Source: Clostridia bacterium (GTDB taxonomy: Bacteria > Bacillota > Clostridia > Oscillospirales > CAG-272). Taken from it: a stretch of 64,000 nt of DNA. Shown here one piece after another: positions 11,621 to 27,399 of this stretch. Location: positions 17,980-81,979 of the forward strand of contig JAGCXA010000014.1 in assembly GCA_017961575.1 (NCBI GenBank). The letters are read 5' to 3'. The notes below the pieces were generated by a model. The model was given only the letters and a program-made list of their open reading frames with translations. It searched no databases and was not told the DNA's origin. The position numbers and the translations under genes were made by a program. Numbering within the stretch: the stretch's first letter is position 1; each line of letters opens with the position of its first letter.

Positions 11621-13389
11621 TCCCGAAGGAAGTCGTCGAAGAGGTCGTCGCGCGCACCGACATCGTGCAGTTGATCTCCGGCTACGTGACGCTTCGCCGC
11701 GCCGGATCGAATATGGTCGGGCTTTGCCCCTTCCACAGCGAGCGGACCCCGTCGTTCACCGTCTTTCCGGGGACGAACGGTTTTTACTGCTTCGGCTGCG
11801 GCGCGGGGGGCGACGCGATCACCTTCGTCAGAAGGACCGAAAACCTCGATTATCCCGACGCCGTCGAGTTCCTTGCCAAGCGGGTCGGCGTCACCGTCAT
11901 CGACACCGACGTTCACGAAACGCGCTCGCGCTTCGATCGGAAACGGATGCTCGAAATGAACCGCGCGGCGGCGCATTTCTTCGTTGCGTCGCTGGACGCC
12001 GACACGCCGGAGGCGGCGGCGGCAAGGGAATACCTTTTCGGAAAGAGAGGGCTTTCCCGCGCGACCGTCACCCATTTCGGACTCGGCTACGCGCCGAACG
12101 GCTTTGAATCGCTGACGCGCCATCTCCGCTCGCTCGGTTACAGCGAGGACGAGCTGGTCGCCGGGGCGCTTTCGCGCAGAAGCGAAAAGACCGGCAATCT
12201 TTACGACTATTTCCGGGGGCGCGTCATGTTCCCGATCATCGACGTGACGGGGAACGTGATCGCCTTCGGCGGGCGGGTGCTCGACAACTCCGAGCCGAAA
12301 TACCTGAACACCTCCGACACCCCGGTCTTCAAAAAGCACCGCAACCTCTTCGCCCTCAACTTCGCGCGCACCGAGTGCGCCGAGCGGCTGATCCTCTGCG
12401 AGGGGTATATGGACGTCATCGCCCTGCACGCCGCCGGATTTCCGCAGGCGGTCGCCACCCTCGGCACCGCGATCACGCCCGATCAGGCGCGGATCATGTC
12501 GCGCTACTCGAAGAAAGTCGTGATCTCCTACGATATGGACGCCGCGGGACGGAAAGCCGCCGACAAGGCGATGAAACTGCTCGAAGAGGTCGGGGTCGAG
12601 GTCACGCTTCTGAAACTCACGGGGGCGAAGGACCCCGACGAGTTCATCCGGGTTTCGGGCGCCGAAGCTTTCCGCCGGGTCCTGGACGGGAGCCAGTCGA
12701 AGTTCGACTATACCCTCGACCGGATCCTCTCGAAATACGATCTTGACGACGCGCAGCAGAAGATCAACGCCCTCGGCGAACTGCGCGAGGTGATCGCGGG
12801 CTTCCCGTCCTCCGCAGAGCGCGAGGTCTATATCGGGGTCGTTTCGGACAAGTTCTCGATCCCGAAGAAATCGCTGCGCGACGACGTGGACCGCTCGATC
12901 GCAAGACAGCGCCGCGCGTACAGGAAAAAGGAAAACGACGTGCTTCGCCAGTCGATCACGGGTTATCAGGATCGGATCAATCCCGAATTCAGCCGGAAAC
13001 CCGGGGTCGCCAGAACCGAGGAGACCGTTCTCGGTCTGCTTCTGCTCGATCCGAAGTATCGCGCTCTGATCCACCGCGACGAGCCGATCCTCTCGGAAAA
13101 CGACTTTCTGACCGAGTTCTCCCGCCGCGTCTTTTGCGCGATCCGCGACCGGATCGGCGACGGGGAATGGGAGATCAGCGCGCTGAACGAGGATTTTACC
13201 CCCGAGGAGGTCGGGCGGATCTACGGGATGCGCAATCGCAGGATGCAGCTCTCGGACAACGGCGACAAGGTTTTCTCGGATTGCGTCGCCGCCCTGAAAG
13301 ACGCGGTCGGCAAAGAGAAGATCGCGCAGACGGACGATCCGATGGCGGCGCTGCAAGAGATTTTGAAAAATAAAAGAAACGATGGATAA
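11617..13389 (+). CDS. dnaG: DNA primase
   Basis: ATG at 11617 overlaps the upstream stop (ATGA). Zinc finger CPFHSERTPSF...CFGCGAGGD and TOPRIM motif EGYMDV. Confidence 0.93.
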   Translation: MIPKEVVEEVVARTDIVQLISGYVTLRRAGSNMVGLCPFHSERTPSFTVFPGTNGFYCFGCGAGGDAITFVRRTENLDYPDAVEFLAKRVGVTVIDTDVHETRSRFDRKRMLEMNRAAAHFFVASLDADTPEAAAAREYLFGKRGLSRATVTHFGLGYAPNGFESLTRHLRSLGYSEDELVAGALSRRSEKTGNLYDYFRGRVMFPIIDVTGNVIAFGGRVLDNSEPKYLNTSDTPVFKKHRNLFALNFARTECAERLILCEGYMDVIALHAAGFPQAVATLGTAITPDQARIMSRYSKKVVISYDMDAAGRKAADKAMKLLEEVGVEVTLLKLTGAKDPDEFIRVSGAEAFRRVLDGSQSKFDYTLDRILSKYDLDDAQQKINALGELREVIAGFPSSAEREVYIGVVSDKFSIPKKSLRDDVDRSIARQRRAYRKKENDVLRQSITGYQDRINPEFSRKPGVARTEETVLGLLLLDPKYRALIHRDEPILSENDFLTEFSRRVFCAIRDRIGDGEWEISALNEDFTPEEVGRIYGMRNRRMQLSDNGDKVFSDCVAALKDAVGKEKIAQTDDPMAALQEILKNKRNDG

Positions 13390-13401
13390 AGGGGAAAAAA
13401 G

Positions 13402-14496
13402 ATGAAGGACAACAAAATCGACGTCAAAGAACTCGTGGATCAGGAGAAAGGCGACGTATTCAACTCCGGCGTGATGCAGGCGCTCGACGATCTCGACTAC
13501 GACCTCGAACAGATGGAGCGCCTTTACGGCGGGATCGACGGCACGCCCGAAATGGCGGAACCCTCGGTCGTCAACAACGACGAGACGGCGCAGGAAGCGG
13601 CGCAGGACGCCGAGATCTACGACACGCCCGAAAAGATGGAAAAGATGCTCGCGCAGGAGGGGCTTGCGATCGACGACCCCGTGCGGATGTATCTGAAAGA
13701 GATCGGTAAGATCCCTCTGCTCGACCCCGACCGCGAGACCTACCTTGCCGAGCGGATCTCGCTCGGCGATCAGGCGGCGCGGAACGAGTTGGTCGAGGCG
13801 AACCTGCGGCTGGTCGTCAGCATCGCGAAACGCCACGTCGGGAAGGGGATGTATTTCCTCGATCTGATCCAGGAGGGCAACCTCGGACTGATGAAGGCGG
13901 TCGAGAAATTCGACTACCAGAAGGGATATAAATTCTCGACCTACGCGACCTGGTGGATCCGGCAGGCGATCACGCGCGCCATCGCGGATCAGGCGCGGAC
14001 CATCCGTATTCCCGTACATATGGTCGAAACGATCCACAAAGTTTCGCGCACCGCGCGGCAACTGTTGCAGGAGAACGGGCGCGAGCCGACCACCGACGAG
14101 ATCGCGAAGGAACTCGGTATGACCCCCGATAAGGTGCGCGAGATCATGAAGATCGCGCAGGATCCCGTTTCGCTCGAAACGCCGATCGGCGAGGAGGAGG
14201 ACAGCCACCTCGGCGACTTCGTCGAGGATACCGACAGCCCCGCGCCCTCGGAGACGGCGTCCTACGCGCTGCTCCGTGAGCAATTGCTCACCGTCCTGAA
14301 CACGCTGACCCCGCGCGAGGCGGACGTTCTGAAACTCCGGTTCGGTCTTGCCGACGGCAGACAGCGGACGCTGGAAGAGGTCGGGCGTCGCTTCAACATC
14401 ACCCGTGAACGCATCCGGCAGATCGAGGCGAAGGCGCTCCGGAAACTCCGTCATCCGAGCCGTTCCAAGATCCTGAAGGACTATCTCGACGTCTGA
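13402..14496 (+). CDS. sigA: Primary RNA polymerase sigma factor SigA/RpoD
   Basis: Signature [30 protein letters not shown] and region 4.2 [18 protein letters not shown]. Confidence 0.95.
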
Positions 14497-14540
14497 CGGA
14501 CGATTTTGCGGATCCGGGGGCGTTTATTTTGCGAAAACGA

Positions 14541-14570
14541 TTGACAACAGCCCCCCGATTGTAGTAAAAT
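14541..14570 (+). promoter_or_regulatory. Sigma-A type promoter for the lipoprotein gene
   Basis: TTGACA (14541-14546), 18 nt, then TAAAAT (14565-14570). Confidence 0.55.
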
Positions 14571-14604
14571 ATATCCGTATGATTTCTGCCTCAATTGGAA
14601 AGGA

Positions 14605-16167
14605 ATGCAAATGATGAAAAGAGTATTCGCCGTACTTCTTCTCGGCTGCCTGCTTTGCCTGGCGCTCGCCGGATGCGGAAAGACCGATCTTGATAAATCT
14701 CAGGATTATATGGACTCCCACCCGCTGAAAGAGAAGAGTCTTTACAGCGTTTCCTTCTGCCTCGTCTCCGACGAGCTGATCGCCCCCGACGCGCTTTCGG
14801 GGATGCAGGATCATTTCAACCGCTATACCGAAGCCAACTATAATATCCACGTCGAATTCACCAACGTGAAGGCGTCGGAGTACGCCGCGTGGCTCGACGA
14901 GAAGTTCGCCGCGGTCGAGGAGGCGTACGAGGAAGCCGCCGCCAAAGCGGCGGAATTGGCGGCGCAGTATCAGGAATACATGAATAACGGGGATTACCAA
15001 GCCGCCGCCGCGCTCATTGAAGAAGCGCGCGGCACTTACGGCAATCTCGGTTCCGACGTGCGCGACGTCTATCCCGAGATCCTTCCGTATCAGTTCGACC
15101 TGATCTATATCGCCGACTACGAGATGCTTTCCTCGCTCGTCGAGGCGAGACGCCTGCGCGATCTGTACCCCGAACTGACGAGCACCGATTACCGCCTCAT
15201 CAAGAAGCATATGACCGAACGGTTCTTCGACGCGGCGATCTTGAACGACACGATCTACGCCGTTCCCAACTGCCGCGTGATGGCAAATTACAGCTATCTG
15301 CGCGTCAACGCGGAGAAGGCGACGTCCCTGAACCAGATCGAGAGTATGCTGTCGACCTATTCGAGCACGCGGTACCTGCGCGCCGGGATCCAGGAACTCG
15401 GGGACGACCCCGCCGATTACGTTCAGCGGAATCTCGTCGGCGACTACGCCTACCGTGAGACGCTGGCGGAGAGGGACGCGGACGGAAAGGCGACCTGGTG
15501 GGTCTACTCCGCGGCGGACGAACAGCGCCCGTCGATCAATCAGAGCGAACTCTTCAAGGGCGCGCTTGCCGTGACCTCCTACGCCATCGTCGACGGCAGG
15601 GACGCGCAGACGACCGAGGACGATTTCTGCCCGGCGGTCAAGATCCTGTACGAGATCGACACCAATCCGGCGCTTCATACCATCCTGCAATACGGTATTC
15701 CCGGGATGACCTATACGCTGAAACAGGTCGCCGAGGGAGGGAAGACCGCAACGGTCGTGAACAAGATCAACGATACCGGTTTTACCTACGAGATCGATCC
15801 GAAGTATACCGGCAACGTCTTCTCGCTCTATCCCACAGAGGAGGAATTCGCCGCCGGAGCGCAGGATAACGCCCGCCGTCAGAACGAAGATACGACCGTG
15901 AAGAGCGAGATCTACGGCGTGACCGTTACCGTCAAACAGCCCGAAGGCGCGGGATGCACCGCCTCCGCCAACCGTCCGTTCACCAAACTGACCGAGACCG
16001 TTTCGGTCTCGGCGACCCCCGCTGACGGATACGTGTTCAAGCAGTGGACGTGGACCGACGGCGAAAACACCTTTGAGTCGACCGAGCCCGTCATCGATCC
16101 CTTCGAGTATTCCACCACCATTACCAAGATTGAGGCGACGTTCGAGAAGGCGCCGACAGCGGAATGA
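14605..16167 (+). CDS. Lipoprotein with a solute-binding-protein-like body and a C-terminal Listeria-Bacteroides-type repeat
   Basis: Signal peptide with lipobox LALAGC. SBP family-1-like segments (DTIYAVPNCRVMANYSYLRVNAEKA). C-terminal VTVTVKQPEGAG...ATPADGYVFKQWTW resembles the Flg_new/List_Bact repeat. True start may be ATG 14611 or 14614. Confidence 0.65.
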   Translation: MQMMKRVFAVLLLGCLLCLALAGCGKTDLDKSQDYMDSHPLKEKSLYSVSFCLVSDELIAPDALSGMQDHFNRYTEANYNIHVEFTNVKASEYAAWLDEKFAAVEEAYEEAAAKAAELAAQYQEYMNNGDYQAAAALIEEARGTYGNLGSDVRDVYPEILPYQFDLIYIADYEMLSSLVEARRLRDLYPELTSTDYRLIKKHMTERFFDAAILNDTIYAVPNCRVMANYSYLRVNAEKATSLNQIESMLSTYSSTRYLRAGIQELGDDPADYVQRNLVGDYAYRETLAERDADGKATWWVYSAADEQRPSINQSELFKGALAVTSYAIVDGRDAQTTEDDFCPAVKILYEIDTNPALHTILQYGIPGMTYTLKQVAEGGKTATVVNKINDTGFTYEIDPKYTGNVFSLYPTEEEFAAGAQDNARRQNEDTTVKSEIYGVTVTVKQPEGAGCTASANRPFTKLTETVSVSATPADGYVFKQWTWTDGENTFESTEPVIDPFEYSTTITKIEATFEKAPTAE

Positions 16168-16210
16168 ATTACGGAAGCGTCGTCTGTCTTGTTCGGAACG
16201 ACGCCGAAAC

Positions 16211-16298
16211 GGGGAACGCCGGAACGCTCCGGCGTTCCCCCTCGTCTGTCCTTTGACCGAAAGGGCGGAGAATCGCCCGGTCAACCGGGCGGGGTTTT
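16211..16298 (+). terminator. Two tandem GC hairpins after the lipoprotein gene (probable terminator)
   Basis: 12-bp stem ggggaacgccgg/ccggcgttcccc (16211-16240) and 7-bp stem cgcccgg/ccgggcg (16274-16291) followed by gggtttt. The U-tracts are weak. Confidence 0.45.
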
Positions 16299-16337
16299 CA
16301 AGAATAATACAATAATCACGATATTTCGGAGGTTGCA

Positions 16338-17819
16338 ATGATTAAATTCGGATGGGCTGAAACCGACGTCACACCCAAGGAAAAGATCTCCTTGCAGGGC
16401 GAGTTCTACGAGCGCGTGACGAACGAGGTCGAAACGCCACTGACCGTGACGGCGCTCGCGATCGACGCCGACGGGGAGCAGACGGTCTTCGTATCCTGCG
16501 ATCTGGTCGAGATCCCGACGCAGACGGTCGAAGAGGTGCGCGAAAAGGTCAACGCCCCGGGTCTTGATCCCATGAAGATCATTATTTCGGCGGTCCATAT
16601 CCACAACTCGTATACGATGCCCGCGATGATCCCGTTCCCGTTCGAAAAGGGACGGAACTCGCTCAAAATGATTATGCAGTACAAGCCCGACGACTGCGTT
16701 TACGTACCAGAGGTGACCTCCGACGACTGTATGACCCCCGACGAATCGGAAGAGTACCTCGTCGCCGCGATCGCCAAGACGGTCGAGACCGCGTGGGCGA
16801 CCCGCGCTCCCGGCGGATACGCCGCCGGATTCGGACGCGCCGCCGTCGGGATGAACCGCCGCGTCTGCTATTCCGACGGAACGGCGAAGATGTGGGGCGA
16901 CGCCGACACCGCGACCTTCACTGAACTCGAAGGCGGGAACGACAACGGCGTCGAGATGCTGTTCGTTTACAACGATAAAAAGCAGCTGACCGGGGTTCTC
17001 GCGAATATCGCCTGCCCCGCGCAGGTGATGGAACAGCGTTCGGTCATCTCCTCCGACTATTGGGGCAAGGTCAAGATCCTGCTCCGCGAGAAGTACGGCA
17101 AGGGGATCTTCCTGCTTCCGCTCTGCGCGGCGGCGGGCGACCAATGCCCGCGCGATCTTATCCGCTGGGTCGAGCCCGAAACGCCGATCAAGGATCCGAA
17201 CGTGATCCGCAACAATCCGAAGCCGCGCGACGCAGACCCCTCGATGTTCGACGTCAAGGGAACCTGGAAGATCGGACGCCGCGTCTTCAACGAGATCGAA
17301 GCCGCGCTCGACGAGGTCACCGAGATCAAGACCGAGGCGGTCCACCGCCACGAGGTCGAGACGCTGAAACTTCCGCTCCGGCGCGTCACCGACGCAGAGT
17401 GCGCCGCGGCAAAGCAAGCCATGAAGGATTTCTTCAAGGGGAAGACCGTCCTGAACTATATGGACTCCGCCGCGCTTTACGTCTACGCCGGAACGGTCCT
17501 GCGCCACTCGCTCCAGGAACACAACTCGATCCTCCCGATCGAGGTGCAGTACGTGCGGCTCGGCGATCTGGCGTTCGCCAGCAATCCCTTCGAACTCTTC
17601 CTCGACTACGGCAACCAGATCCGCGCGCGGAGCGCGGCGCGGCAGACCTTCCTGCTGCAACTGACGAACGGGTCGCTCGGATACCTCCCGACCGAAAAAG
17701 CCGAGAAACACGGGCATTACAGCGCCTACGTTTCGAGCGGTTACGTCGGGCACGAGGGCGGCGCGCTCCTCGTCTCGGAAACGCTGGAAGTCATCAACCG
17801 TCTGTTTGATATCGTTTGA
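16338..17819 (+). CDS. Hypothetical hydrolase resembling the neutral/alkaline ceramidase N-terminal domain
   Basis: 493 aa. The pattern GWAETDVTP ... FVSCDL ... SAVHIHNS parallels the ceramidase GxAxxDITP ... DL ... ATHTHSGP. Function tentative, coding status strong. Confidence 0.6.
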   Translation: MIKFGWAETDVTPKEKISLQGEFYERVTNEVETPLTVTALAIDADGEQTVFVSCDLVEIPTQTVEEVREKVNAPGLDPMKIIISAVHIHNSYTMPAMIPFPFEKGRNSLKMIMQYKPDDCVYVPEVTSDDCMTPDESEEYLVAAIAKTVETAWATRAPGGYAAGFGRAAVGMNRRVCYSDGTAKMWGDADTATFTELEGGNDNGVEMLFVYNDKKQLTGVLANIACPAQVMEQRSVISSDYWGKVKILLREKYGKGIFLLPLCAAAGDQCPRDLIRWVEPETPIKDPNVIRNNPKPRDADPSMFDVKGTWKIGRRVFNEIEAALDEVTEIKTEAVHRHEVETLKLPLRRVTDAECAAAKQAMKDFFKGKTVLNYMDSAALYVYAGTVLRHSLQEHNSILPIEVQYVRLGDLAFASNPFELFLDYGNQIRARSAARQTFLLQLTNGSLGYLPTEKAEKHGHYSAYVSSGYVGHEGGALLVSETLEVINRLFDIV

Positions 17820-17842
17820 AATATCGAAAGGAAATAAGAACA

Positions 17843-19195
17843 ATGGGAAAAATCGGATTCGTAGGTTTCGGAGAAGTCAATACCCCGGTCGACGTGATCG
17901 TACGGAAATGCAAAGCGGCGGAGGCGGCGCTCAAAGAGGAGGGACTTGATCTCGTTTCGGTCTATCCCGTCGCCGACGATTACGAGGAGACGCAGGTCAA
18001 GGACGCCGTGAAGCGTCTGAAAGCCGAGTCATTCGACGCGCTCGTCGTCTGCGTCGCGGGCTGGATCCCGACCCACGCCGTCGTGAAGGTGACCGAACAG
18101 TTCCGCCATCTGCCGATGGTGCTCTGGGGTCTTTGCGGCTGGTACGAGGGCGACCGTCTCGTCACGACCGCCGATCAGGCGGGCACGACGGGTCTCCGCG
18201 CGACCTTCGAGGGGCTCGGATACACCTTCAAATACGTTTACGACGTGATGGGGAGAAAGACCAAGAGCGCCGTCGTCGCGTCCTACTGCCGCGCCGCCGT
18301 CGCCGCGAAGGAACTCCTCTCGGAGAAGGTCGGTATGGCGGGCTACCGCGATATGAACCTCTACGGAACGCTCTACGACGGCATCTCGCTCAAAGCCAAG
18401 ACCGGCGTTGAGATCGAGACCTTCGAGATGCTCGAAATGCAGCAGAGATACGAGAAGATCACCGACGCCGAGAAGGAAAAGGTGGTCGAGACCCGCATCA
18501 AGAAGTGGCACTTCTTGAAGCCCGCGAACCCCGACGCGATGAAGAAGGCGGCGGGCTACTACCTCGCCGTCAAGCAAATCGCCGAGGAGCGGAACTACCG
18601 CTCGATCTCGATCAAGGACGTCGACGGGATGAAGAAACTCTGCGGATTCCCGCCCGCCCCGATCTTTATGCTTCTCTCCGAGGACGGCTACACCACGGTC
18701 CCCGAGAACGATTCGCTCGGCGCCGTGACGCAGTTGATGATGAACAAACTGACGGGTCAGCTCGCCGGATACCTTGAATTCTACGAGTTCTTCGACACCA
18801 GCATGCTCGCCGGCGTGCCGGACTTCGTCGCCGCCGATATGGTGGACGGCGATACCTACACCGTGCTTCCCGCCGCGTTCGGTCTGCTCGATCAGGGCAT
18901 CCTGAACGTCTCGAAGGTGAAGACCGGGACGGTCACGATGTCGCGTCTCACCTTCAAGGACGGCAAGTACACGATGCAGATCATTCTCGGCGACGGCAAG
19001 ACCCCGCCGAAGTGGGAGGAGTGCGGATGGGATCAGCCCGCGCCGCAGCTCTCCGCGTTGAAGATCGAGATCCCCGACGTCGAGCGTTTCGCCGAGAACG
19101 TCGCCTGCCAGCACTACATCATCACCTACGGCGATAACCGTCAGGCGATCCGCAACCTCTGCGCGATCCTCGGGATCGACGTGCTCGAACTCTGA
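17843..19195 (+). CDS. L-fucose/L-arabinose isomerase family protein
   Basis: ATG at 17843 follows GAAAGGAAA. The Rossmann-like N-terminus MGKIGFVGFGEVNTP and overall length and layout fit FucI-like sugar isomerases. Substrate unknown. Confidence 0.7.
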   Translation: MGKIGFVGFGEVNTPVDVIVRKCKAAEAALKEEGLDLVSVYPVADDYEETQVKDAVKRLKAESFDALVVCVAGWIPTHAVVKVTEQFRHLPMVLWGLCGWYEGDRLVTTADQAGTTGLRATFEGLGYTFKYVYDVMGRKTKSAVVASYCRAAVAAKELLSEKVGMAGYRDMNLYGTLYDGISLKAKTGVEIETFEMLEMQQRYEKITDAEKEKVVETRIKKWHFLKPANPDAMKKAAGYYLAVKQIAEERNYRSISIKDVDGMKKLCGFPPAPIFMLLSEDGYTTVPENDSLGAVTQLMMNKLTGQLAGYLEFYEFFDTSMLAGVPDFVAADMVDGDTYTVLPAAFGLLDQGILNVSKVKTGTVTMSRLTFKDGKYTMQIILGDGKTPPKWEECGWDQPAPQLSALKIEIPDVERFAENVACQHYIITYGDNRQAIRNLCAILGIDVLEL

Positions 19196-19198
19196 TCT

Positions 19199-20641
19199 GT
19201 GAAAACGATGAAAACCTTTCTCGGACTTGACGTCGGCACGACGTCGCTGAAAGCCGCGATCTTCGACGAAACGGGGAAGCGGCTGGGGTTCCGGTCGGTC
19301 GACTATACGCTCGACACCGACCCCGTGTCCGGTACGATCGAGTTTGACGCCGAATCCTACATCACGATGTGCCGCCGCGTGATCGCGGAACTCTCCGACG
19401 AATGCGGCGCGCCCGACGCGCTCTCGGTCGATACGCAGGGCGAGACCATGATCCTCACCGACAGAGACGGAAAACCCCTTTGTCCCGCCGTCGTCTGGCT
19501 CGACAACCGCGCCGAAAAAGAGGCGGAGGAAGTCAAGCGCGATTTCGGTCTGAAACGGGTTTACGAGGTCACGGGACAGCCCGAGATCACGGCGGGGTGG
19601 CCGGCGTGCAAACTTCTCTGGTTCAAACGCAACCGCCCCGAGATCTTCGACCGGATCGACAAGGTGTTCCTGCTCGAAGACTGGATCCTCTATCGGCTGA
19701 CCGGGAACTTCGTGACCGAGCCGACCATCCAGTCCTCCTCGGTCTACTTCGACGTCTCGAAGCGCGACTGGTGGCGCGAAATGCTCGACTATATCGGTCT
19801 TCCCGAATCCCGTTTTCCGCGCGTTTTGCACAGTATGGAGGTCTGCGGGGAATACAACGGGATCAAGGTCGTGACGGGGGCGCTCGACCAGATCGCCGGA
19901 ACCGTCGGCTGCGGCGTCGTCGACGAGAGCGAGATCAGCGAGATGACCGGGACGATCATGGCGATCTGCGCGATGACCGATTCCATCCCGCCCTACGATC
20001 CCGCCAGCATCATCCCCTGCCACCTTCACGCGATCGAGGGGAAGTATTGCCGCATCCTCTGGTCGAGTACCGCCGGAATGGCGCTCAAATGGTTCAAAAA
20101 CGGGTTTTCCGAGAACTATTCCTTCAAGGAACTCGACGAACTCGCGAAGAAGATCCCGGCGGGCTCCGACGGTATGACCGTCCTTCCGTACTTCACGGGA
20201 TCGACGATGCCGAAATACAATCCCGAGGCGACGGCGGTTTTTTCGGGCGTAACGCTCGCCCATACGCGGGGGCATTTCGCCCGCGCGATCATGGAGTCGA
20301 TCGCGTTTCTGCTCCGTGAGGACCTTGCCTACATCGGCGCGGACGGCATCCGCGAGATCCGGATCACCGGGGGCGGCGCGTCAAGCCCGCTCTGGGCGCA
20401 GATCAAAGCCGACGTGACGGGGAAGACCCTCCGCACGGTCAGCGAGAGCGAGACGGCGTGTCTCGGATGCGCGGTCTTCGCCGCGGTCGGGATCGGGGCG
20501 TTCCCGTCGGTGTCCGACGCCGCCGGGAAACTCGTTCGTCCCGACAAACGCTACGTTCCCTCCGGCGCGGATTACGAGGACGCCTACCGCCGATTCGCCG
20601 CGCTCGACGAGAAAATGAATCAAGTACCGAAAGGAAACTGA
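19199..20641 (+). CDS. FGGY-family carbohydrate kinase (xylulokinase-like)
   Basis: N-terminal FLGLDVGTTSLKA and C-terminal ITGGGASSPLWAQIKADV motifs of FGGY kinases. Alternative start ATG 19208. Confidence 0.85.
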   Translation: MKTMKTFLGLDVGTTSLKAAIFDETGKRLGFRSVDYTLDTDPVSGTIEFDAESYITMCRRVIAELSDECGAPDALSVDTQGETMILTDRDGKPLCPAVVWLDNRAEKEAEEVKRDFGLKRVYEVTGQPEITAGWPACKLLWFKRNRPEIFDRIDKVFLLEDWILYRLTGNFVTEPTIQSSSVYFDVSKRDWWREMLDYIGLPESRFPRVLHSMEVCGEYNGIKVVTGALDQIAGTVGCGVVDESEISEMTGTIMAICAMTDSIPPYDPASIIPCHLHAIEGKYCRILWSSTAGMALKWFKNGFSENYSFKELDELAKKIPAGSDGMTVLPYFTGSTMPKYNPEATAVFSGVTLAHTRGHFARAIMESIAFLLREDLAYIGADGIREIRITGGGASSPLWAQIKADVTGKTLRTVSESETACLGCAVFAAVGIGAFPSVSDAAGKLVRPDKRYVPSGADYEDAYRRFAALDEKMNQVPKGN

Positions 20642-20642
20642 A

Positions 20643-21347
20643 ATGTACCGCAATTACAAGATCCGCGCACCTTATTTCGAGATCGGACCCAAGTGCTTCA
20701 TGTGGGGCGAGCGGATGCTGAAACTCGCCAAGAAGATCGACGAGATCGCCGGGAAATACGACCTCGACGTGATCGTTACCCCGCAGTACGTCGACATCCG
20801 TCTGCTTGCCGAGAACACCGAGAATATCCACGTCTACGCCCAGCATATGGACACGCTTCGTCCGGGGCGCGGGCTCGGCTCGGTCTTGCCCGAGTCGGTG
20901 AAGGCGGCGGGCGCGGTCGGCGTGATGCTGAACCACGCCGAAAAGAAACTGACGCTCGACGAGATCCGTGAGAGCATCGCGCGCGCCGACGAGGTCGGAC
21001 TTGCCTCCATCGTCTGCGCCGACAGCGTCGAGGAGATCCGGCAGGTCGCCCTGATGGGTCCGAACCTCATCGTCGCCGAGCCGACCGAACTGATCGGGAC
21101 GGGGGTAGCGAGCGATATGGGCTACGTCCGCGACACCATCGAGGCGGTCAGACGGATCAATCCCGACATTATGGTTCTGCAGGGCGCCGGGATCTCCGGA
21201 CCCGAGGACGTTGCGAACGTCATCCGCGCGGGCGCGCAGGCGACGGGATGCACCAGCGGCGTGATGAAAGCGAAGGATCCCGAGGCGGCGGCGGAGGAAA
21301 TGCTCTGGACGCTCCGCAAGACCTGGGACGAGGTACACGGGAAATGA
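20643..21347 (+). CDS. Triose-phosphate isomerase family protein, short archaeal-type paralog
   Basis: 234 aa. Catalytic-region motifs LNHAEKK and VAEPTELIGTG match the archaeal short TIM pattern rather than the bacterial AYEPVWAIGTG. Confidence 0.75.
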   Translation: MYRNYKIRAPYFEIGPKCFMWGERMLKLAKKIDEIAGKYDLDVIVTPQYVDIRLLAENTENIHVYAQHMDTLRPGRGLGSVLPESVKAAGAVGVMLNHAEKKLTLDEIRESIARADEVGLASIVCADSVEEIRQVALMGPNLIVAEPTELIGTGVASDMGYVRDTIEAVRRINPDIMVLQGAGISGPEDVANVIRAGAQATGCTSGVMKAKDPEAAAEEMLWTLRKTWDEVHGK

Positions 21348-21946
21348 TTAAGGATCGGATCGTTGACGACGCGCTCGCGGCGTTCCAGACCGAGAGCGAA
21401 TCCATCCGGGAGACGGCGAACGCGATCGACCGCGCGGATTTCCTTCGGGCGGCGGAACTGCTCGTCAAAGCCCCGCGGATCGCGTCCACCGGATGCGGAC
21501 ACAGCGGGATCGCCGCGCGGCATTTCGCGCATCTGATGTGCTGCTGTGACCGTCCGGCGCGTTTCCTCTCGCCCGCGGAGGCGGTGCACGGGGGACTCGG
21601 CTTCCTCGAAAAGGGGGACGTCCTTCTCTGGACCTCCCGCGGCGGGAAGACCGACGAACTCATCCCGATCGTGTCGGTCTCCCGCAAGAAGGGCGTGACC
21701 GTGATCGGCGTGACCGAGAACCTGAACTCCCCCCTCGCCGGTGAATCCGACGTCGTGATCCCGATCCGGGTCACGCGCGAATGCGACCCCGACAACTGTC
21801 AGGGAACGACCAGTTTCGCCGTCACCTGCGCCGTTTTCGACGCGCTGCAAACGGCGGTGATCGAACTGTCGGGCTTTTGCAAGGACGATTTCGCCGTGAT
21901 CCATCCGGGCGGCGCCGTCGGCAAGCGCCTGAACGGCGTCAAATAA
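21344..21946 (+). CDS. Single-SIS-domain sugar-phosphate isomerase (KpsF/GutQ-like SIS without CBS domains)
   Basis: ATG at 21344 overlaps the TIM stop (ATGA). SIS motifs TGCGHSGIAARHFAHL and PAEAVHGGLGFLEKGDVLL..SRGGKTDE. Confidence 0.75.
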   Translation: MIKDRIVDDALAAFQTESESIRETANAIDRADFLRAAELLVKAPRIASTGCGHSGIAARHFAHLMCCCDRPARFLSPAEAVHGGLGFLEKGDVLLWTSRGGKTDELIPIVSVSRKKGVTVIGVTENLNSPLAGESDVVIPIRVTRECDPDNCQGTTSFAVTCAVFDALQTAVIELSGFCKDDFAVIHPGGAVGKRLNGVK

Positions 21947-21984
21947 GCAATCAAAAAGAAAGAACATATAAAGGAGAGCAAACT

Positions 21985-22605
21985 ATGGAATTCATCGTTT
22001 TTCAGAAGGAACTGGAACTGCAATCGAGAGGGTGGATCCCCACTTTTCACGACGTGTCGAAGGAGATCCGCGAGATCGTCAAGGCGTCGGGTGTGAAGAA
22101 CGGGACGGTCTGCGTCGCGTCGCACCACACGACCTGCTCGGTGATGGTGCAGGAGTGCTCCCACGACATCGACAGTTTTGACCTCGAATACCTGCAGCAC
22201 GACCTGCTCGACATCATGCGGAAACTCGTTCCCGACTTCAAGGAGGAGCATCAGTACCGTCATCCCGGTCCGCTCCATTCTCAGTTCGGCAGATACGTCA
22301 ACGAGCCGGGCGACTTCACCAGCATGAACACCGACGGGCATCTGCGCTCGGTCTTCTTCGGCAGAAGCGAGACCATGACGATCAAGGACGGGGAACTCGA
22401 CGGCGGCGAATTCGCGCACGTCTACTTCATCGACTGGGATCAGGTGCGCGCGCGTCACCGTCAGCTGAACGTGACGGTTATGGGTACCACCGACTCGGTC
22501 GGAGACCGCAAGTGGAACAACGGCGAGGTCATCAACACGCTCCACAAGTTCACCGACGAGGAGAAGGCGTACGACCTTCACTACGATCTGCAACTGAAAA
22601 GATAA
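21985..22605 (+). CDS. YjbQ/UPF0047 family protein (secondary thiamine-phosphate synthase-like), enlarged
   Basis: ATG at 21985 follows AAAGGAGAG. Family motifs ASHHTTCSVMVQE and NTDGHLRSVFFGRSETMTIKDGEL. At 206 aa it is longer than the usual ~140 aa. Confidence 0.7.
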   Translation: MEFIVFQKELELQSRGWIPTFHDVSKEIREIVKASGVKNGTVCVASHHTTCSVMVQECSHDIDSFDLEYLQHDLLDIMRKLVPDFKEEHQYRHPGPLHSQFGRYVNEPGDFTSMNTDGHLRSVFFGRSETMTIKDGELDGGEFAHVYFIDWDQVRARHRQLNVTVMGTTDSVGDRKWNNGEVINTLHKFTDEEKAYDLHYDLQLKR

Positions 22606-22615
22606 GAGGAAGAAT

Positions 22616-23299
22616 ATGAAACTCATTCTTGATACCGCAAATCTCGACGACATCCGGTATTTCAACACCTACTACCCGATCTCGGGCGTGACGACCAACC
22701 CGACCATCCTCTCGCGGGAGGGCGGCGACATCGTCAAGCACCTGAAAACCATCCGCGAGATCATCGGGGAGGACAAGGAACTGCATATCCAGGTGACCGA
22801 GACCGAGTTCGAGAAGATCGTCGCTGAGGCGAAACTGATCGTCAAGACCTTCGGTAAAAACACCTTCGTCAAGATCCCGGCGACCGACGTCGGTCTGCGC
22901 GCAACCGCCGCCCTTTCAAAAGAGGGGATCGGCGTGACCGTGACCGCCGTTTTCAGCGCGGGACAGGCGCTTCTTGCCGCGACCGCCGGGGCTTCGTACG
23001 TCGCTCCCTACGTCAGCCGGCTTGAAAACATCTGCGAGGACGGGGTCGGCGTCGTCGCCGAGATCCAGCAGGTGTTCGACTGCGACGATTACAAGACCGT
23101 CATCCTCGCCGCGTCTTTCAAGACCGCGCGCGAGGTGCTCGACGTCGCGCTCGCGGGCGCCGGCGCCGCGACGGTTTCCGCCGACGTTCTGAAAAAACTT
23201 CTGTCGCACACCTCGACCGACACCTCGATCGCCGGCTTTGAAGCCGATTGGAAAAAGGCGTTCGGCGACGCGAAACTTTCACAACTTCTGAAGGGCTGA
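22616..23299 (+). CDS. Fructose-6-phosphate aldolase / TalC-type short transaldolase
   Basis: 227 aa. N-terminus MKLILDTANLDDI..ISGVTTNPTIL and Schiff-base region TFVKIPAT are typical of the FSA/short-Tal family. Confidence 0.88.
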   Translation: MKLILDTANLDDIRYFNTYYPISGVTTNPTILSREGGDIVKHLKTIREIIGEDKELHIQVTETEFEKIVAEAKLIVKTFGKNTFVKIPATDVGLRATAALSKEGIGVTVTAVFSAGQALLAATAGASYVAPYVSRLENICEDGVGVVAEIQQVFDCDDYKTVILAASFKTAREVLDVALAGAGAATVSADVLKKLLSHTSTDTSIAGFEADWKKAFGDAKLSQLLKG

Positions 23300-23353: not shown

Positions 23354-24283
23354 ATGAAAAGGGCTTTTGTTCTCGTCTTTATCGCGTGTGTTCTGTGGGG
23401 GACGTCGGGGATCTTCGTCCACTTTCTGTCCCCCTACGGATTTACGGCGCTCCAAATGACCGCCGTGAGGGGGATCGTCTCGTTCCTCCTCATGGCGGGC
23501 TTTGCTTTGCTTTTCGACAGGGGACAGTTCCGGATCCTGAATTGGCGTGAACTGTTGCTCTATCTCTTTATGGGCGTCACGCTCTTCGGGACGGCGTTCT
23601 GCTATTATCAGTCGATGCGGATGACGTCGGTCTCGACCGCCGTCGTTCTGATGTATATCTCTCCGATCTACATTCTGCTTTTCTCGTTCATCGTTTTCCA
23701 CGAGAAACTCGGACCCGTCAAGGGGATCTCGGTCGCGGGGATCCTGCTCGGCTGCGTGCTTGTCTCGGGGGTCGTCGGGGGCGGGAGATTCAATCTTCCG
23801 GGCGTTCTCATCGGCGTTCTCTCGGGCGTTTCCTACGCGATCTACAACATCTTGGCAAAACTGTCTGTCCGCCGCGGCGGATCGCCGATCAAGGCGACGC
23901 TCTACGCCTTTCTCTTTATGGCGGTGATCGCGCTGATCCCCTCGCATCCCGATAGGATACTCTCCTGCACGGCACAAAGACCCGCCGTCACGGTCCCGCT
24001 CTTGCTCGGGCTTGGGATCTGCACCTGCATTCTTCCGTATTTCCTGTTCAATTACTCCCTGAAAACGCTGCCCTCCGGCACGGCGTCGGCGATGTCGATC
24101 ATCGAACCGCTCTCGGCGTCGGTTTTCAGTTTCACCCTGCTCGGGGAGGACCCCGACGCCCCCTCGATCATCGGGATCGTTCTGATCCTTCTCTGCGTGA
24201 TCGTCCTCGAACGGAGCGAACTCAAAAAGAATGCGCCGAAGCCGAAAGAAAAGCCGGCGACGGATCCGACCGCAGCCCCGTAA
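23354..24283 (+). CDS. EamA/DMT-family transporter
   Basis: 309 aa, about 10 TM segments, two EamA-like halves. Confidence 0.8.
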   Translation: MKRAFVLVFIACVLWGTSGIFVHFLSPYGFTALQMTAVRGIVSFLLMAGFALLFDRGQFRILNWRELLLYLFMGVTLFGTAFCYYQSMRMTSVSTAVVLMYISPIYILLFSFIVFHEKLGPVKGISVAGILLGCVLVSGVVGGGRFNLPGVLIGVLSGVSYAIYNILAKLSVRRGGSPIKATLYAFLFMAVIALIPSHPDRILSCTAQRPAVTVPLLLGLGICTCILPYFLFNYSLKTLPSGTASAMSIIEPLSASVFSFTLLGEDPDAPSIIGIVLILLCVIVLERSELKKNAPKPKEKPATDPTAAP

Positions 24284-24286
24284 CAA

Positions 24287-24329
24287 AAGAAAAAAGCGCG
24301 CCGCCCGACCGGGCGGCGCTTTTCGTTTT
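24287..24329. terminator. Bidirectional terminator between convergent genes
   Basis: 9-bp GC stem gcgccgccc/gggcggcgc with loop gacc, flanked by an A-tract (aagaaaaaa) and a T-tract (ttttcgttttt). Confidence 0.75.
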
Positions 24330-25643
24330 TCAGATTCCGAGCCGCAGCCAAAGACCGAAGAGCGCCGCGGCAAGGGACGGGATCACGAGGATTACCCCGT
24401 ACAAGGTGAATTTCTTGAAAGAGAAGGAGACGCCCGCGCGTCGGAGAAGCGACGCCCACATGATCCCGGCAAGCGCCCCGAGCGGCGTTAAAAACGCGCC
24501 GAGATTGGAACCGATCACGGCGGCGTAGATTCCGGCGGACAGGTTTGCTCCCGCGAGAGCGCCGTCCGCGAGGATCGAACTGAACAGCACGCTCATCGGG
24601 ATGTTGTTGACGAGGTTTGCCGTAAGGCAGGAGAGCGCGCCGTAGGAGAAGATCGGCGCGCGATCCCCGAGCGCCTCTCCGATCCTTTCCGTCACGCCGT
24701 AGGCGGAGAGCGTAAGCACGACGGTGAACATCGACAGAACGAAGGGAACGAGCGGCCAGGGAAGCCGCCGGACCGTCCTTGCAAGTTCACGCGGTCGCTT
24801 TTTCCGGATCAGCGAGGCAAGAAGGACGAAGAGAAAGAGCGAGACGGCGAATCCGAGCGAGACGATCCACATTTGAAACCCGATATAGGAACCGACCGCG
24901 AGCAGAACCGTAGAGAGAAGAAGGTGGGCGAGCCCGATGGGGAGAAGAACGGGGTCGGGTTTTTCTTCCTCCGTCCAGATCGGGTCCATCGGCTCCGCGA
25001 GTTGCCTGGCAAAAAGGAGCCGCAGAACGAGAAGAGAGGTCACCCCGGCAAAAAGCGTCGGGAGCGCCATCACCGAGAGGTATTCGCCGAACCCGATCCC
25101 GGCGGAGCCGCCGAGATAGATATTCGTCGGGTTGCCGATCAGGAGCGCCATACTCCACGTATTCGCCGCGACGAACTCCGAGACGAGGTAGGGGAGCGGG
25201 TTAATCCCGGCGCAGCGCGTGAAATAGCAGATGAACGGCGTGAAGGTCAGGATGATGACGTCGTTCGACGTGAAAACCGTGAGGATCGAGACAAGCCCGT
25301 AGAGCGTGTAGAACAGGACGGTCTGCTTCTCTCCCGCGACCCGGATCGCCTTTCCGGCAAGATACCGGAAAAAGCCGATCTCGTCGAGAAAAATCGAAAG
25401 AGAGGTCATCGAGAGAAAGAGGATCAGGATCTTCAACGGGTTGATCGCCGTTTCGGAGGAGAGCCCCGCCCAAAGGGCGGAGAGCGAGATCCGGCGGCAG
25501 AGGATCAGGGTGATCGCGCCGATCAGCGCGATCACCCAATATATTCCGATCTTCTTTTTGCCGATCCTGATCTCGGGGAAGAACAGAACCGACAGGATGA
25601 TCGTCAGCGCGGTCAGGGAAGCGATGAGTATCGTCGGGATCAT
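24330..25643 (-). CDS. ArsB/NhaD-superfamily (CitMHS-like) ion permease
   Basis: 437 aa polytopic membrane protein with the family-like N-terminus and repeated hairpin regions. Substrate unknown. Confidence 0.7.
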   Translation of the reverse strand: MIPTILIASLTALTIILSVLFFPEIRIGKKKIGIYWVIALIGAITLILCRRISLSALWAGLSSETAINPLKILILFLSMTSLSIFLDEIGFFRYLAGKAIRVAGEKQTVLFYTLYGLVSILTVFTSNDVIILTFTPFICYFTRCAGINPLPYLVSEFVAANTWSMALLIGNPTNIYLGGSAGIGFGEYLSVMALPTLFAGVTSLLVLRLLFARQLAEPMDPIWTEEEKPDPVLLPIGLAHLLLSTVLLAVGSYIGFQMWIVSLGFAVSLFLFVLLASLIRKKRPRELARTVRRLPWPLVPFVLSMFTVVLTLSAYGVTERIGEALGDRAPIFSYGALSCLTANLVNNIPMSVLFSSILADGALAGANLSAGIYAAVIGSNLGAFLTPLGALAGIMWASLLRRAGVSFSFKKFTLYGVILVIPSLAAALFGLWLRLGI

Positions 25644-25664
25644 AAAGCCGATCAGCCCCGGAAA

Positions 25665-26738
25665 TCAGTTTCCGTCGCCGAACAGGTCGGTCTGCCCCGG
25701 GATCTGATCGCCGGGCTTTCTCCTCTGCCCGAAGGGGATCCCGAGGTGTTCGTAGGCAAGCCGGGTGACGCAGCGTCCGCGCGGCGTGCGGGAGAGGAAC
25801 CCGATTTGCAGAAGGTAGGGCTCGTACACGTCCTCGATCGTGATGGATTCCTCGCCGATCGTCGCCGCGACGGTTTCCAGCCCGACGGGGCCGCCGTCGT
25901 AGTAGTTGATGATGGCGGAGAGCATCTTGCGGTCGGCGTTGTCGAGTCCGAGTTCGTCGATTTCAAGCATTTGCAGCGCCGTTTTCGCCATTTCCACGTC
26001 GATCGACCCGTTCCCGCGGACGAGCGCGAAGTCGCGCGCCCGTTTGAGCAGGCGGTTGGCGATACGCGGCGTGCCGCGCGAGCGCGACGCGAGTTCGAGC
26101 GCGCCGTCGTCGGTGATCCTGATGTCGAGGATCTTCGCGCTTCGTTTGACGATGGTGGCGAGTTCCTCCGGGGTGTAGAGTTCGAGTTTCAGAACGACGC
26201 CGAAGCGGTCGCGGAGCGGGGTCGTCAACTGTCCCGCGCGCGTCGTCGCGCCGATCAGCGTGAAATGCGGGATCGGAAGCCGGATGCTGCGCGCCGACGG
26301 ACCCTTTCCAATGATGATGTCGATGGCGTAGTCCTCCATCGCGGGATAAAGGATCTCCTCGATCGAGCGCGAGAGCCGGTGGATCTCGTCGATGAAGAGA
26401 ACGTCGCCCTCGGAAAGATTGGTCAGGATCGCGGCAAGGTCGCCCTGCTTTTCGATCGCGGGTCCCGACGTTGTCCTGATATTGACCCCCATCTCCGCCG
26501 CGATGATGCCCGACAGAGTCGTTTTGCCGAGCCCCGGAGGGCCGTAGAGCAGAACGTGATCGAGCGACTCTCCGCGGAGTTTCGCTGCTTCTATGCCGAT
26601 TTTCAGGTTTGCCTTCGCCTTCTCCTGCCCGATGTATTCGTCGAGCGTTTTCGGGCGAAGACTGACCTCGGCGTCCGCGTCGGTCGGGGCGTATTCGCTG
26701 GATACGATCCGGCTTTCAAAGTCAAATTCCTGTTCCAT
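25665..26738 (-). CDS. ruvB: Holliday junction branch migration helicase RuvB
   Basis: Walker [11 protein letters not shown], Walker [10 protein letters not shown], sensor and arginine motifs, and a winged-helix C-terminus. Confidence 0.96.
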
Positions 26739-26778
26739 TCCTGTTTCCCCTTCTGTATTTCGGATAATGGGAGGGCGA

Positions 26779-27399
26779 TTATTTCACGAATTTGCGGAGC
26801 GCCGCCGTGATGATCTCTTCAAGGGTCAGTTTCTCGGTATCAAGCCCGCGCAGGGCGGAGAGAATCTGACTCCTGTCGTAACCGAGCGCCGTCAGCGCCT
26901 CGGTCGCCTCGGTCAGTTTTCCGTTCTTCCTCGTCTGCTCGGCTGTCGTCCCGTCGGGCTTCGCCGCCGTCGCGCCGCTCTCGCGGAAGAGATCGACCGA
27001 CACCTTGTCTTTCAGTTCGAGGACGATGCGGGCGGCGGTTTTACCGCCGATGCCGTTGGCGCGCGCGAGCGATTTGACGTCCTCGGTGCCGACGGCGAAG
27101 ATCAGTTTGTCGGGGGAGAAGGACGAGAGAAGCGACATCGCCGCCTTCGGTCCGACCCCGGAGACCCCGGTCAGGAGATTGAACACCTCGCGCTCTTCTT
27201 CGGACAGGAAACCGAAGAGTTCGACCCCGTCCTCCCGTACCGAAAGATGCGTGAAGAGCCGGACGGTCTCGCCGCGCTTGCGTGAGAGGACGTCCGAGGT
27301 GATGAGACTGATCGTCAGTTTGTAGCCCACCCCGCCGCACTCCACGACGGCGGTCGACTGATCGGAATAGGTCAGTTCTCCTTTGACGTAGTAATACAT
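26779..27399 (-). CDS. ruvA: Holliday junction DNA-binding protein RuvA
   Basis: 206 aa with N-terminus MYYYVKGEL and HhH motifs [13 protein letters not shown] and [11 protein letters not shown]. Confidence 0.95.

Follow-up and report, generated by a model that had tools for sequence, protein, structure and literature searches.

The 64,000-nucleotide stretch of Clostridia DNA analysed here (hereafter the window) carries a real and tightly packed operon of uncultured gut Clostridia, in which known protein superfamilies occur in an undescribed combination and at least three of the components are orphan or atypical. Its eight genes, designated g1 through g8, form one compact unit. Our preferred reading, to which we assign a probability of roughly 45%, is that they constitute an inducible operon whose products catabolise, in the cytoplasm, a rare sugar taken up from glycans of plants or microbes, with a chemistry that we infer from the predicted enzymes. 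The interest lies less in the operon itself than in the context it gives to a YjbQ protein, in a clade of proteins resembling triose-phosphate isomerase (TIM) that lack the catalytic Asn, and in a new ceramidase-fold family. The features of the region are as follows (window coordinates, strand, identity and basis; aa, amino acids).

16211..16240, plus strand: GC-rich hairpin located 3′ of the upstream lipoprotein gene (leader folding and conservation in relatives)
16338..17819, plus strand: g1, predicted metallo-hydrolase of neutral-ceramidase fold, 493 aa (AlphaFold2 (AF2) model and Foldseek)
17843..19195, plus strand: g2, predicted isomerase-like protein of the FucI/AraA superfamily, 450 aa (Pfam PF02952 and PF24856)
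19199..20641, plus strand: g3, predicted FGGY sugar kinase, XylB-like (FGGY_N and FGGY_C)
20643..21347, plus strand: g4, archaeal-type TIM paralogue without the catalytic Asn (PRK04302 and 1hg3)
21344..21946, plus strand: g5, putative single-SIS phosphosugar isomerase (SIS domain)
21985..22605, plus strand: g6, extended YjbQ/UPF0047 protein, 206 aa (PF01894)
22616..23299, plus strand: g7, predicted FSA-type class I aldolase (TAL_FSA)
23354..24283, plus strand: g8, EamA/DMT transporter (EamA, 134 bits)
24298..24319, unstranded: bidirectional intrinsic terminator with 9 GC pairs and T tracts on both strands (terminator scan)

There are seven co-directional open reading frames (ORFs) on the plus strand, contiguous from 16338 to 23299, and the intergenic spacings from g1 to g7 are 23, 3, 1, −4, 38 and 10 nt. 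A first-pass annotation of this DNA had described contiguous genes with gaps of at most 38 nt or ATGA overlaps, and the ORF coordinates bear this out. The 4-nt ATGA overlap joins g4 to g5, and g5 is translationally coupled to g4 through it. Sequences resembling Shine-Dalgarno elements precede g1, g2 and g6. The start of g2 is placed at the ATG at 17843, which is the choice made by its orthologues and which lies within a TTG-started ORF spanning 17816-19195.

The gap between g7 and g8 is only 54 nt and the terminator scan found no terminator in it, and the single convincing terminator downstream of g7 is the strong one at 24298-24319. Because of this arrangement, the EamA gene g8 is probably co-transcribed and is probably part of the unit, as its last gene in this lineage. 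The transcription unit thus most likely spans g1 to the EamA gene, which makes doubtful the earlier statement that there is no transporter inside the operon. Among the relatives, an EamA gene is located 3′ of the FSA gene only in two close ones (L066 and L083).

A conserved core with exchangeable front ends

Species-representative genomes were scanned for the FucI-like protein, which yielded 504 confirmed loci. The best 80 of these 504 are all found in metagenome-assembled genomes (MAGs) of uncultured Clostridia/Oscillospiraceae type from ruminant and human guts. Neighbourhoods were counted in the 23 species genomes in which at least 7 kb flank the gene on both sides, using ORF families assigned by a custom script; this sample is biased to close relatives and truncated contigs. 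Near the FucI-like gene in these 23 loci there are genes for an FGGY kinase (22), the TIM-like protein (19), a SIS protein (17), YjbQ (17), g1 (15), FSA (15) and a divergently oriented DeoR repressor (10). A DeoR repressor gene is present at 18 loci overall. The same cluster also surrounds a g1 homologue that is 57% identical.

Dozens of genomes and metagenome contigs from Clostridia carry these genes together, and there are at least three gene orders among the clusters of relatives. Chance adjacency is excluded because the gene set is conserved despite this rearrangement, and the earlier proposal of a genuine operon is upheld by a set of genes that stays together while its order is shuffled. 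Given how widespread the cluster is in uncultured gut Clostridia of ruminants and humans, its substrate is probably a sugar of dietary or microbial origin that is quantitatively relevant but has gone unrecognised.

An alignment of the TIM-like protein served as the query against the JGI metagenomes. There are more than 600 pattern-matched metagenome stretches, 524 of which were confirmed to carry the TIM-like gene. In these, the SIS, TIM-like and YjbQ genes travel with those for an FGGY kinase and a hydrolase resembling g1, including cases in which the last two proteins are only 22-26% identical to their counterparts in the window. Identity of the TIM-like protein in these distant core clusters is 58-65%.

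One distant variant (L123, L147, L149, L154, L161, L162 and L168) lacks both the FucI-like and the FSA genes. It carries instead a NagA (249 bits, cut-off 225.65) and a NagB-like protein (50 bits), and its YjbQ is a 166-aa form that scores 85 bits. Some of its loci add an HpcH-type aldolase, an aldo-keto reductase, a MocA-type oxidoreductase, an SDR protein and an MFS carrier, or alternatively Rpe and glycerate kinase. At a further locus (L117), the distant core is accompanied by a FucI-like protein of 24% identity. The FSA gene accompanies only part of the FucI-type clusters.

Thus the core consists of the ceramidase-fold hydrolase, the FGGY kinase, the SIS protein, the Asn-less TIM-like protein and YjbQ, and it is older and more widespread than the combination found in the window. 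The FucI-like and FSA genes are exchangeable add-ons, and the variant in the window adds a FucI/AraA-like isomerase and, often, FSA. In evolutionary terms the anchor of the cluster is this core and not the FucI-like gene.

The accessory neighbours of the cluster in relatives include two types of MFS carrier, M20 amidohydrolases, proteins resembling glycoside hydrolase (GH) families 39, 5 and 140, GH28 proteins, KDG kinase and KDPG aldolase. GH39-like paralogues occur at 11 loci, and five are in tandem in one of them (L007, 1606-8500). In a separate observation, a block recurs 3′ of the FSA gene at several loci (L009, L011, L070 and others). It contains an M20D amidohydrolase, g1, an MFS carrier resembling bile-salt/lactate carriers and a B3-type protein of the metallo-beta-lactamase fold, as well as an MFS carrier resembling organophosphate antiporters, an M20A peptidase and a PGA_cap/MslH-like protein. 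Such a block suggests processing of an amide- or peptide-linked conjugate.

Predicted functions of the individual proteins

The first-pass annotation had named six families for the seven genes from g1 to g7. All six calls are confirmed by hidden Markov model (HMM) searches, the one for g2 weakly and still above the Pfam cut-offs, and g1 is the gene that had been left unnamed. There is no sequence match to g1 in Pfam, NCBIfam or PDB. Its AF2 model (pLDDT 87.5) was compared by Foldseek, in which the best matches are the neutral ceramidases 2zws and 4wgk (E 3e-21, prob 1.0, TMq 0.63-0.65, TMt 0.49-0.50), and fold matches are confined to neutral ceramidases. The residues H87, H89, R174, D202, E419, Y449 and Y461 are invariant down to 22% identity, and the H-x-H, E, Y and Y among them are presumably the Zn-site residues of ceramidases. 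The HTH and E..Y..Y sequence regions align with 4wgk (human neutral ceramidase) in an alignment that is not significant by sequence. The protein therefore combines the fold of the neutral-ceramidase catalytic domain with the H-x-H/E/Y/Y pattern, but it does not match the Pfam model Ceramidase_alk, lacks the ceramidase C-terminal domain and is shorter at 493 aa than the 630-690 aa of ceramidases. It also has no signal peptide. The model thus points to a cytoplasmic metallo-hydrolase with the neutral-ceramidase catalytic-domain fold that stands outside the ceramidase family by sequence. At one locus (L078), three tandem g1 paralogues are located beside the cluster.

The g2 protein barely passes the cut-offs of two Pfam models, with 32.8 bits for PF02952 (Fucose_iso_C, cut-off 29.3) and 24.8 bits for PF24856 (AraA_central, cut-off 24). 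Its best NCBIfam model is the sulfoquinovose isomerase SftI at 47.7 bits against a cut-off of 700, and AraA scores 32.7 against 622, such that neither match reaches the equivalog level. A sequence search of PDB with g2 gave no match. Members of the superfamily have an Mn-binding Glu/Glu/His/His site. A profile of the g2 family aligns weakly with the central domain of AraA, its E-x-D and E motifs included, and this alignment sets the invariant g2 residues E288 and E312/E315 on the AraA metal-ligand motifs; the AF2 model (pLDDT 56) is too poor for a check of this placement. There are 3688 homologues of g2 at E ≤ 1e-10, every one of which is unnamed. On these grounds g2 is predicted to represent a distinct family in the FucI/AraA superfamily that is aldose-ketose isomerase-like. 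In three relatives (L001, L002 and L020), an 83%-identical orthologue of g2 stands apart from kinase, TIM-like, SIS and FSA genes, with an AraC-type regulator gene and a GH5-like gene as its neighbours.

The g3 protein matches FGGY_N with 174 bits and FGGY_C with 89 bits. Among NCBIfam models it scores 299.8 against a cut-off of 380 for XylB (TIGR01312) and 142 against 471 for FucK, and it is 23% identical to the E. coli apulose kinase AplK. This protein is predicted to be an FGGY kinase that is closest to XylB, below the equivalog cut-off.

The g4 protein scores 207.8 bits with the NCBIfam model PRK04302 (cut-off 132) and matches the TIM of P. woesei (1hg3) with 2.9e-48. Its residues K17, H98 (in LNHAE) and E146 (in AEPTELIGTG) and its phosphate loops GAGIS and TSG align with 1hg3 and are conserved in orthologues, and we take the catalytic residues to have the roles known from the TIM family. 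However, the catalytic Asn of the N-x-K motif is absent, such that N-F-K of 1hg3 reads G-P-K. The resulting motif FE[IV]GPK is present in 51 of the 51 g4 orthologues, and the residue two positions ahead of the Gly is an invariant Glu (E13). Among 1.8 billion representatives searched, the nearest clusters to g4 read FE[IV]G[PTV]K, and the canonical N[FYL]K is found only in more distant sequences that resemble archaeal TIMs. A motif search for the canonical bacterial TIM found none in the window or in the collected loci.

The Asn-less proteins thus form a clade distinct from the canonical archaeal TIMs with N-x-K. Because it lacks the Asn, g4 should not be classed as a bona fide TIM even though it scores above the PRK04302 cut-off, and the earlier suggestion of a specialised paralogue is strengthened by the change from Asn to Gly in all orthologues. 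Automatic pipelines give this clade the name ‘triose-phosphate isomerase’.

The g5 protein is a single SIS domain of about 200 aa (59 bits in Pfam) that has no CBS domain, where the classical APIs (arabinose-5-phosphate isomerases) have a pair, and keeps the motifs HGxLG, E and HPGG. NCBIfam scores are 123 against a cut-off of 203.7 for KpsF/GutQ and 46.6 for HxlB. The best PDB match is an uncharacterised SIS protein from Listeria (3fxa, 3e-43), followed by the APIs 5uqi, 3etn and 2xhz. The GxGKSG of APIs is GCGHSG in g5, so the catalytic Lys of APIs is replaced by His.

The g6 protein matches PF01894 with 89.1 bits (cut-off 27) and falls just under the cut-off of TIGR00149 (64.5 against 67.75), and its matches to UPF0047 structures are weak. 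Its gene always adjoins the TIM-like and SIS genes in relatives. YjbQ/UPF0047 proteins are found in all domains of life and, to our knowledge, have no known physiological role. The cluster provides a testable genomic context for them, as it does for the Asn-less TIM clade and for a ceramidase-fold family that has no Pfam model.

The g7 protein scores 179 bits with TAL_FSA and 213 bits with TIGR00875 (cut-off 246), which marks it as a divergent member. A Gln at the acid/base position and a Tyr near the Schiff-base Lys are characteristic of FSA-type aldolases rather than transaldolases. The g7 residues at these positions, Gln59 and Tyr132, correspond to Glu and Phe in the wild-type transaldolase 3s0c and to Gln and Tyr in the top-scoring match 4xz9, which we take to be an engineered variant that mimics FSA. 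This pair is present in 38 of the 38 orthologues, and the Arg and Ser/Lys motifs (YVAPYVSRL and AASFKT) are retained. From its residues, g7 is predicted to be a class I aldolase of the FSA type and not of the transaldolase type.

A proposed route and its alternatives

The first-pass annotation had read these genes as an isomerase, a kinase, phosphosugar isomerases and an enzyme of carbon-carbon cleavage, acting in that order, and this remains the most economical reading that can be inferred. A catabolic role is favoured because of the DeoR, MFS and glycoside hydrolase context in relatives. The substrate would be imported by EamA in the window or by MFS carriers in relatives, and the cluster would be controlled by the DeoR repressor in those relatives that carry it. 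In the cytoplasm, g1 would hydrolyse an amide bond (N-acyl or glycosylamide) of the imported compound, the FucI/AraA-like g2 would convert the freed aldose into a ketose, and the FGGY kinase g3 would phosphorylate this ketose. The coupled TIM-like and SIS proteins, probably together with YjbQ, might then carry the ketose phosphate through a series of enediol-type isomerisations, in the course of which an amino group may be lost, to give the D-threo configuration needed by FSA. Finally, the FSA-type g7 would split this product into unphosphorylated glycolaldehyde or dihydroxyacetone and glyceraldehyde 3-phosphate (G3P). The E. coli enzyme FsaA cleaves arabinose 5-phosphate (A5P) into glycolaldehyde and G3P with a KM of 0.65 mM (PMC6900487).

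In the sister variant, a 2-acetamido sugar would enter the same core through the kinase, NagA and the NagB-like deaminase, which would replace the aldose isomerase. This NagA/NagB-like variant fits the view that both variants converge on a similar ketose phosphate. The likeness to amino-sugar catabolism by NagA and NagB is limited to the sister variant, in which these proteins stand beside the same five-gene core, whereas the window has neither and the core genes play no role in the canonical N-acetylglucosamine pathway.

An N-acyl or amino-substituted sugar is the substrate class that we tentatively prefer, at less than even odds, because the operon has a hydrolase, because M20 and NagA genes occur as neighbours, and because the TIM-like protein has a new Glu beside a pocket made by the Gly. 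One possibility, which we consider speculative and on the whole unlikely, is that the five-gene core is an undescribed module that deacylates an N-acyl-amino sugar and then shifts its carbonyl and/or removes its amino group by enediol/enaminol chemistry. Perhaps the TIM-like protein uses its active-site Glu and the pocket made by the Gly on an amino- or carbon-substituted analogue of dihydroxyacetone phosphate (DHAP) or G3P, with either the FucI-like protein or NagA plus the NagB-like protein as front end. If this were true, the module would provide the first physiological role for UPF0047/YjbQ and for bacterial ceramidase-fold proteins, as well as a new TIM-derived activity.

Several points weigh against the main route set out above. 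The gene set singles out no one substrate, and the enzyme activities are predictions made from protein sequence. The order in which the TIM-like, SIS and YjbQ proteins would act is a guess, and the bond attacked by g1 could be other than an amide. The FSA gene is missing beside many otherwise complete clusters, and thus FSA cleavage may not be obligatory. In addition, the known substrates of FucI/AraA-type isomerases are neutral aldoses, so that a substrate with an amide group is not an easy fit. The active site of g2 was checked only through a weak profile alignment, its AF2 model having a pLDDT of 56, and the hosts are all uncultured MAGs.

There are several other substrates to which the same enzymes could be fitted. 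In a route for a pentose of the D-arabinose/D-ribulose type, which we regard as improbable, the FucI-like protein would convert an aldopentose into D-ribulose, the kinase would form ribulose 5-phosphate (Ru5P), the SIS protein would act as an API to give A5P, FSA would release glycolaldehyde and G3P, and the TIM-like protein would convert G3P into DHAP. The hexose homologue of this route would work alike, from psicose 6-phosphate through altrose 6-phosphate to glycolaldehyde and erythrose 4-phosphate (E4P). It is in keeping with such a pentose that E. coli FucI doubles as a D-arabinose isomerase, that XylB-like kinases are of the type that phosphorylates the terminal carbon, and that the best curated matches of g5 are KpsF/GutQ/KdsD, with the PDB matches to APIs given above. 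We know of no described natural operon that pairs an API-like SIS isomerase with FSA. The pairing resembles the KdsD-FsaA route, in which Ru5P is converted through A5P into glycolaldehyde and G3P (PMC6900487, PMC9947464), and FSA cleavage of A5P is on record, though only in synthetic pathways (PMC6900487). That route is engineered, however, and the window differs from it in a SIS protein whose API Lys is a His and in an FSA that is often absent from relatives. Since Ru5P itself belongs to central metabolism, there would be no rationale for further steps. Moreover, the Asn-less TIM-like protein, YjbQ and the ceramidase-fold hydrolase would be left unexplained although they belong to the conserved core, and the cluster has no enzyme that detoxifies glycolaldehyde. 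If the FSA step does act on substrates resembling A5P, the cluster would be the counterpart in nature of a route that so far exists only in engineered metabolism.

The first-pass annotation had pointed to tetrose or tetritol pathways, and this lead is possible but not favoured over other substrates; we rate it slightly below the pentose. An aldotetrose would be converted into erythrulose by the FucI-like protein and phosphorylated by the FGGY kinase, erythrulose 1-phosphate would be converted into erythrulose 4-phosphate by the TIM-like protein and then into E4P by the SIS protein, and FSA would replace transaldolase in the use of E4P. In Brucella, the step between the two erythrulose phosphates is carried out by a TIM paralogue. 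In the window the candidate genes g4 and g5 are translationally coupled, and the change from Asn to Gly in g4 might give room for an extra carbon. Overexpression of YjbQ in E. coli bypasses PdxB via a route that forms a C4 phospho-keto acid (PMC3010111). The tetritol pathways of Brucella and Mycobacterium smegmatis (EryA/LerK, EryC, EryH/LerI and EryI/DerI) likewise run successive isomerisations of small ketose phosphates, in this case erythrulose phosphates, after an FGGY kinase (LerK, LerI, DerI; PMC10733421). They differ in that the window has no polyol dehydrogenase, its TIM paralogue is archaeal-type and lacks the Asn, its second isomerase is a SIS protein rather than RpiB, and FSA, YjbQ and a hydrolase are added to the set. 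The sequences of the two systems are not orthologous, and no known erythrulose kinase is as near to g3 as XylB is. Glycoside hydrolases and amidohydrolases surround the clusters, although neither a glycan containing tetroses nor an abundant source of tetrose is known, and the NagA/NagB-like sister variant cannot act on a tetrose.

A third candidate, which we consider less probable still, is D-apiose from pectin rhamnogalacturonan II (RG-II) or apiogalacturonan. Here the FucI-like protein would form apulose, the FGGY kinase apulose 4-phosphate and the SIS protein an apiose phosphate, which FSA would cleave into glycolaldehyde and DHAP in place of the transketolase step, and the TIM-like protein would convert DHAP into G3P. 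The gene neighbourhoods provide some encouragement. In L116, L128 and L145, a divergently oriented gene that combines GH140 (‘apiosidase-like’, PF13204, 204 bits) with DUF5060 is located beside the FucI-type cluster, which hints at a link to RG-II or apiose. GH28 genes adjoin the cluster in L081 and L082, as do KDG kinase/KDPG aldolase genes in L006, L049 and L051. Identity among these three loci is 64-100%, and the adjacency of GH140 is confined to one lineage. The known transketolase-dependent D-apiose pathway (ApsI, AplK and AptAB) likewise opens with an isomerase and an FGGY kinase that act on a rare sugar of the plant cell wall (PMC13001218), but the window operon has no transketolase and g3 is only 23% identical to AplK. 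A ketone acceptor would be unprecedented for an FSA-type aldolase, and this substrate accounts for neither the NagA/NagB-like variant nor the amide hydrolase. As an orthologue of the transketolase route the operon was rejected, both on the distance to AplK and because the split transketolase near L081 and L082 is in a housekeeping context.

There is very little probability that the operon belongs to a characterised pathway (L-fucose/D-arabinose, L-arabinose, xylose, the sulfoquinovose sulfo-TAL route or transketolase-type apiose), that its genes are merely adjacent, or that its role is biosynthetic. The family-level names do coincide with those of known pathways (FucI-like, xylulokinase-like and transaldolase-like), and the fuc and ara operons of E. 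coli are similar in that they too run from a FucI/AraA-superfamily isomerase through an FGGY kinase to an enzyme that cleaves a carbon-carbon bond, all cytoplasmic and repressor-controlled. However, g2 is a separate 450-aa family without an equivalog match, and g7 is predicted to be a class I enzyme of the FSA type that releases an unphosphorylated donor, whereas the E. coli operons use a class II DHAP aldolase. The window also adds the TIM-like, SIS and YjbQ proteins and the ceramidase-fold hydrolase. Every equivalog model is far below its cut-off, in agreement with the earlier view that the operon does not match those for fucose, rhamnose, arabinose, xylose or sulfoquinovose. The unit has no class II aldolase, epimerase, transketolase, sulfoquinovosidase or sulfolactaldehyde reductase. 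We rejected the sulfo-TAL route because SftI scores 47.7 against 700 and because g7 matches ordinary Tal/FSA proteins better (166 bits) than it does the sulfofructose transaldolase 8bc3 (103 bits). Literature searches gave no published description of this gene set, and neither these nor the equivalog comparison revealed a characterised pathway that matches the whole cluster. Mere adjacency is excluded by conservation with rearrangement, and the context that favours catabolism argues against a biosynthetic role.

Limits of the unit and flanking genes

The 176-nt leader between the upstream lipoprotein gene and g1 (16165-16340) forms three strong hairpins, with a minimum free energy of −79 kcal/mol and a z of −4.7. 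The stem of the hairpin at 16211-16240 is invariant and its loop is variable in 5 relatives. This hairpin has a weak T tract and was not called by the simple terminator scan, but it probably acts as a terminator and bounds the unit on its 5′ side. The region as a whole is probably a terminator plus a leader structure. The leader matches no Rfam family, and the whole 64-kb window has no Rfam match at gathering score and no gene in a tRNA scan.

The upstream lipoprotein had been described as solute-binding-like in the first-pass annotation. Its only HMM match is to the InlB B-repeat and none is to a solute-binding protein, the conserved hairpin separates its gene from g1, and it is found only in close relatives. 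It was therefore dropped as a candidate binding protein of the system.

The GC content of the operon is 0.59-0.63, the same as in the rest of the window. This high G+C content gives rise to long spurious ORFs on the minus strand, such as those at 18029-20275 (748 aa) and 14524-16338 (604 aa). The unit is flanked by housekeeping genes, with dnaG and an rpoD-like gene upstream (11599-14496) and with genes for an ArsB/CitMHS-type permease, ruvB and ruvA on the opposite strand downstream (24330-27399). The synteny of these flanks is identical in the 95%-identical contig L083.

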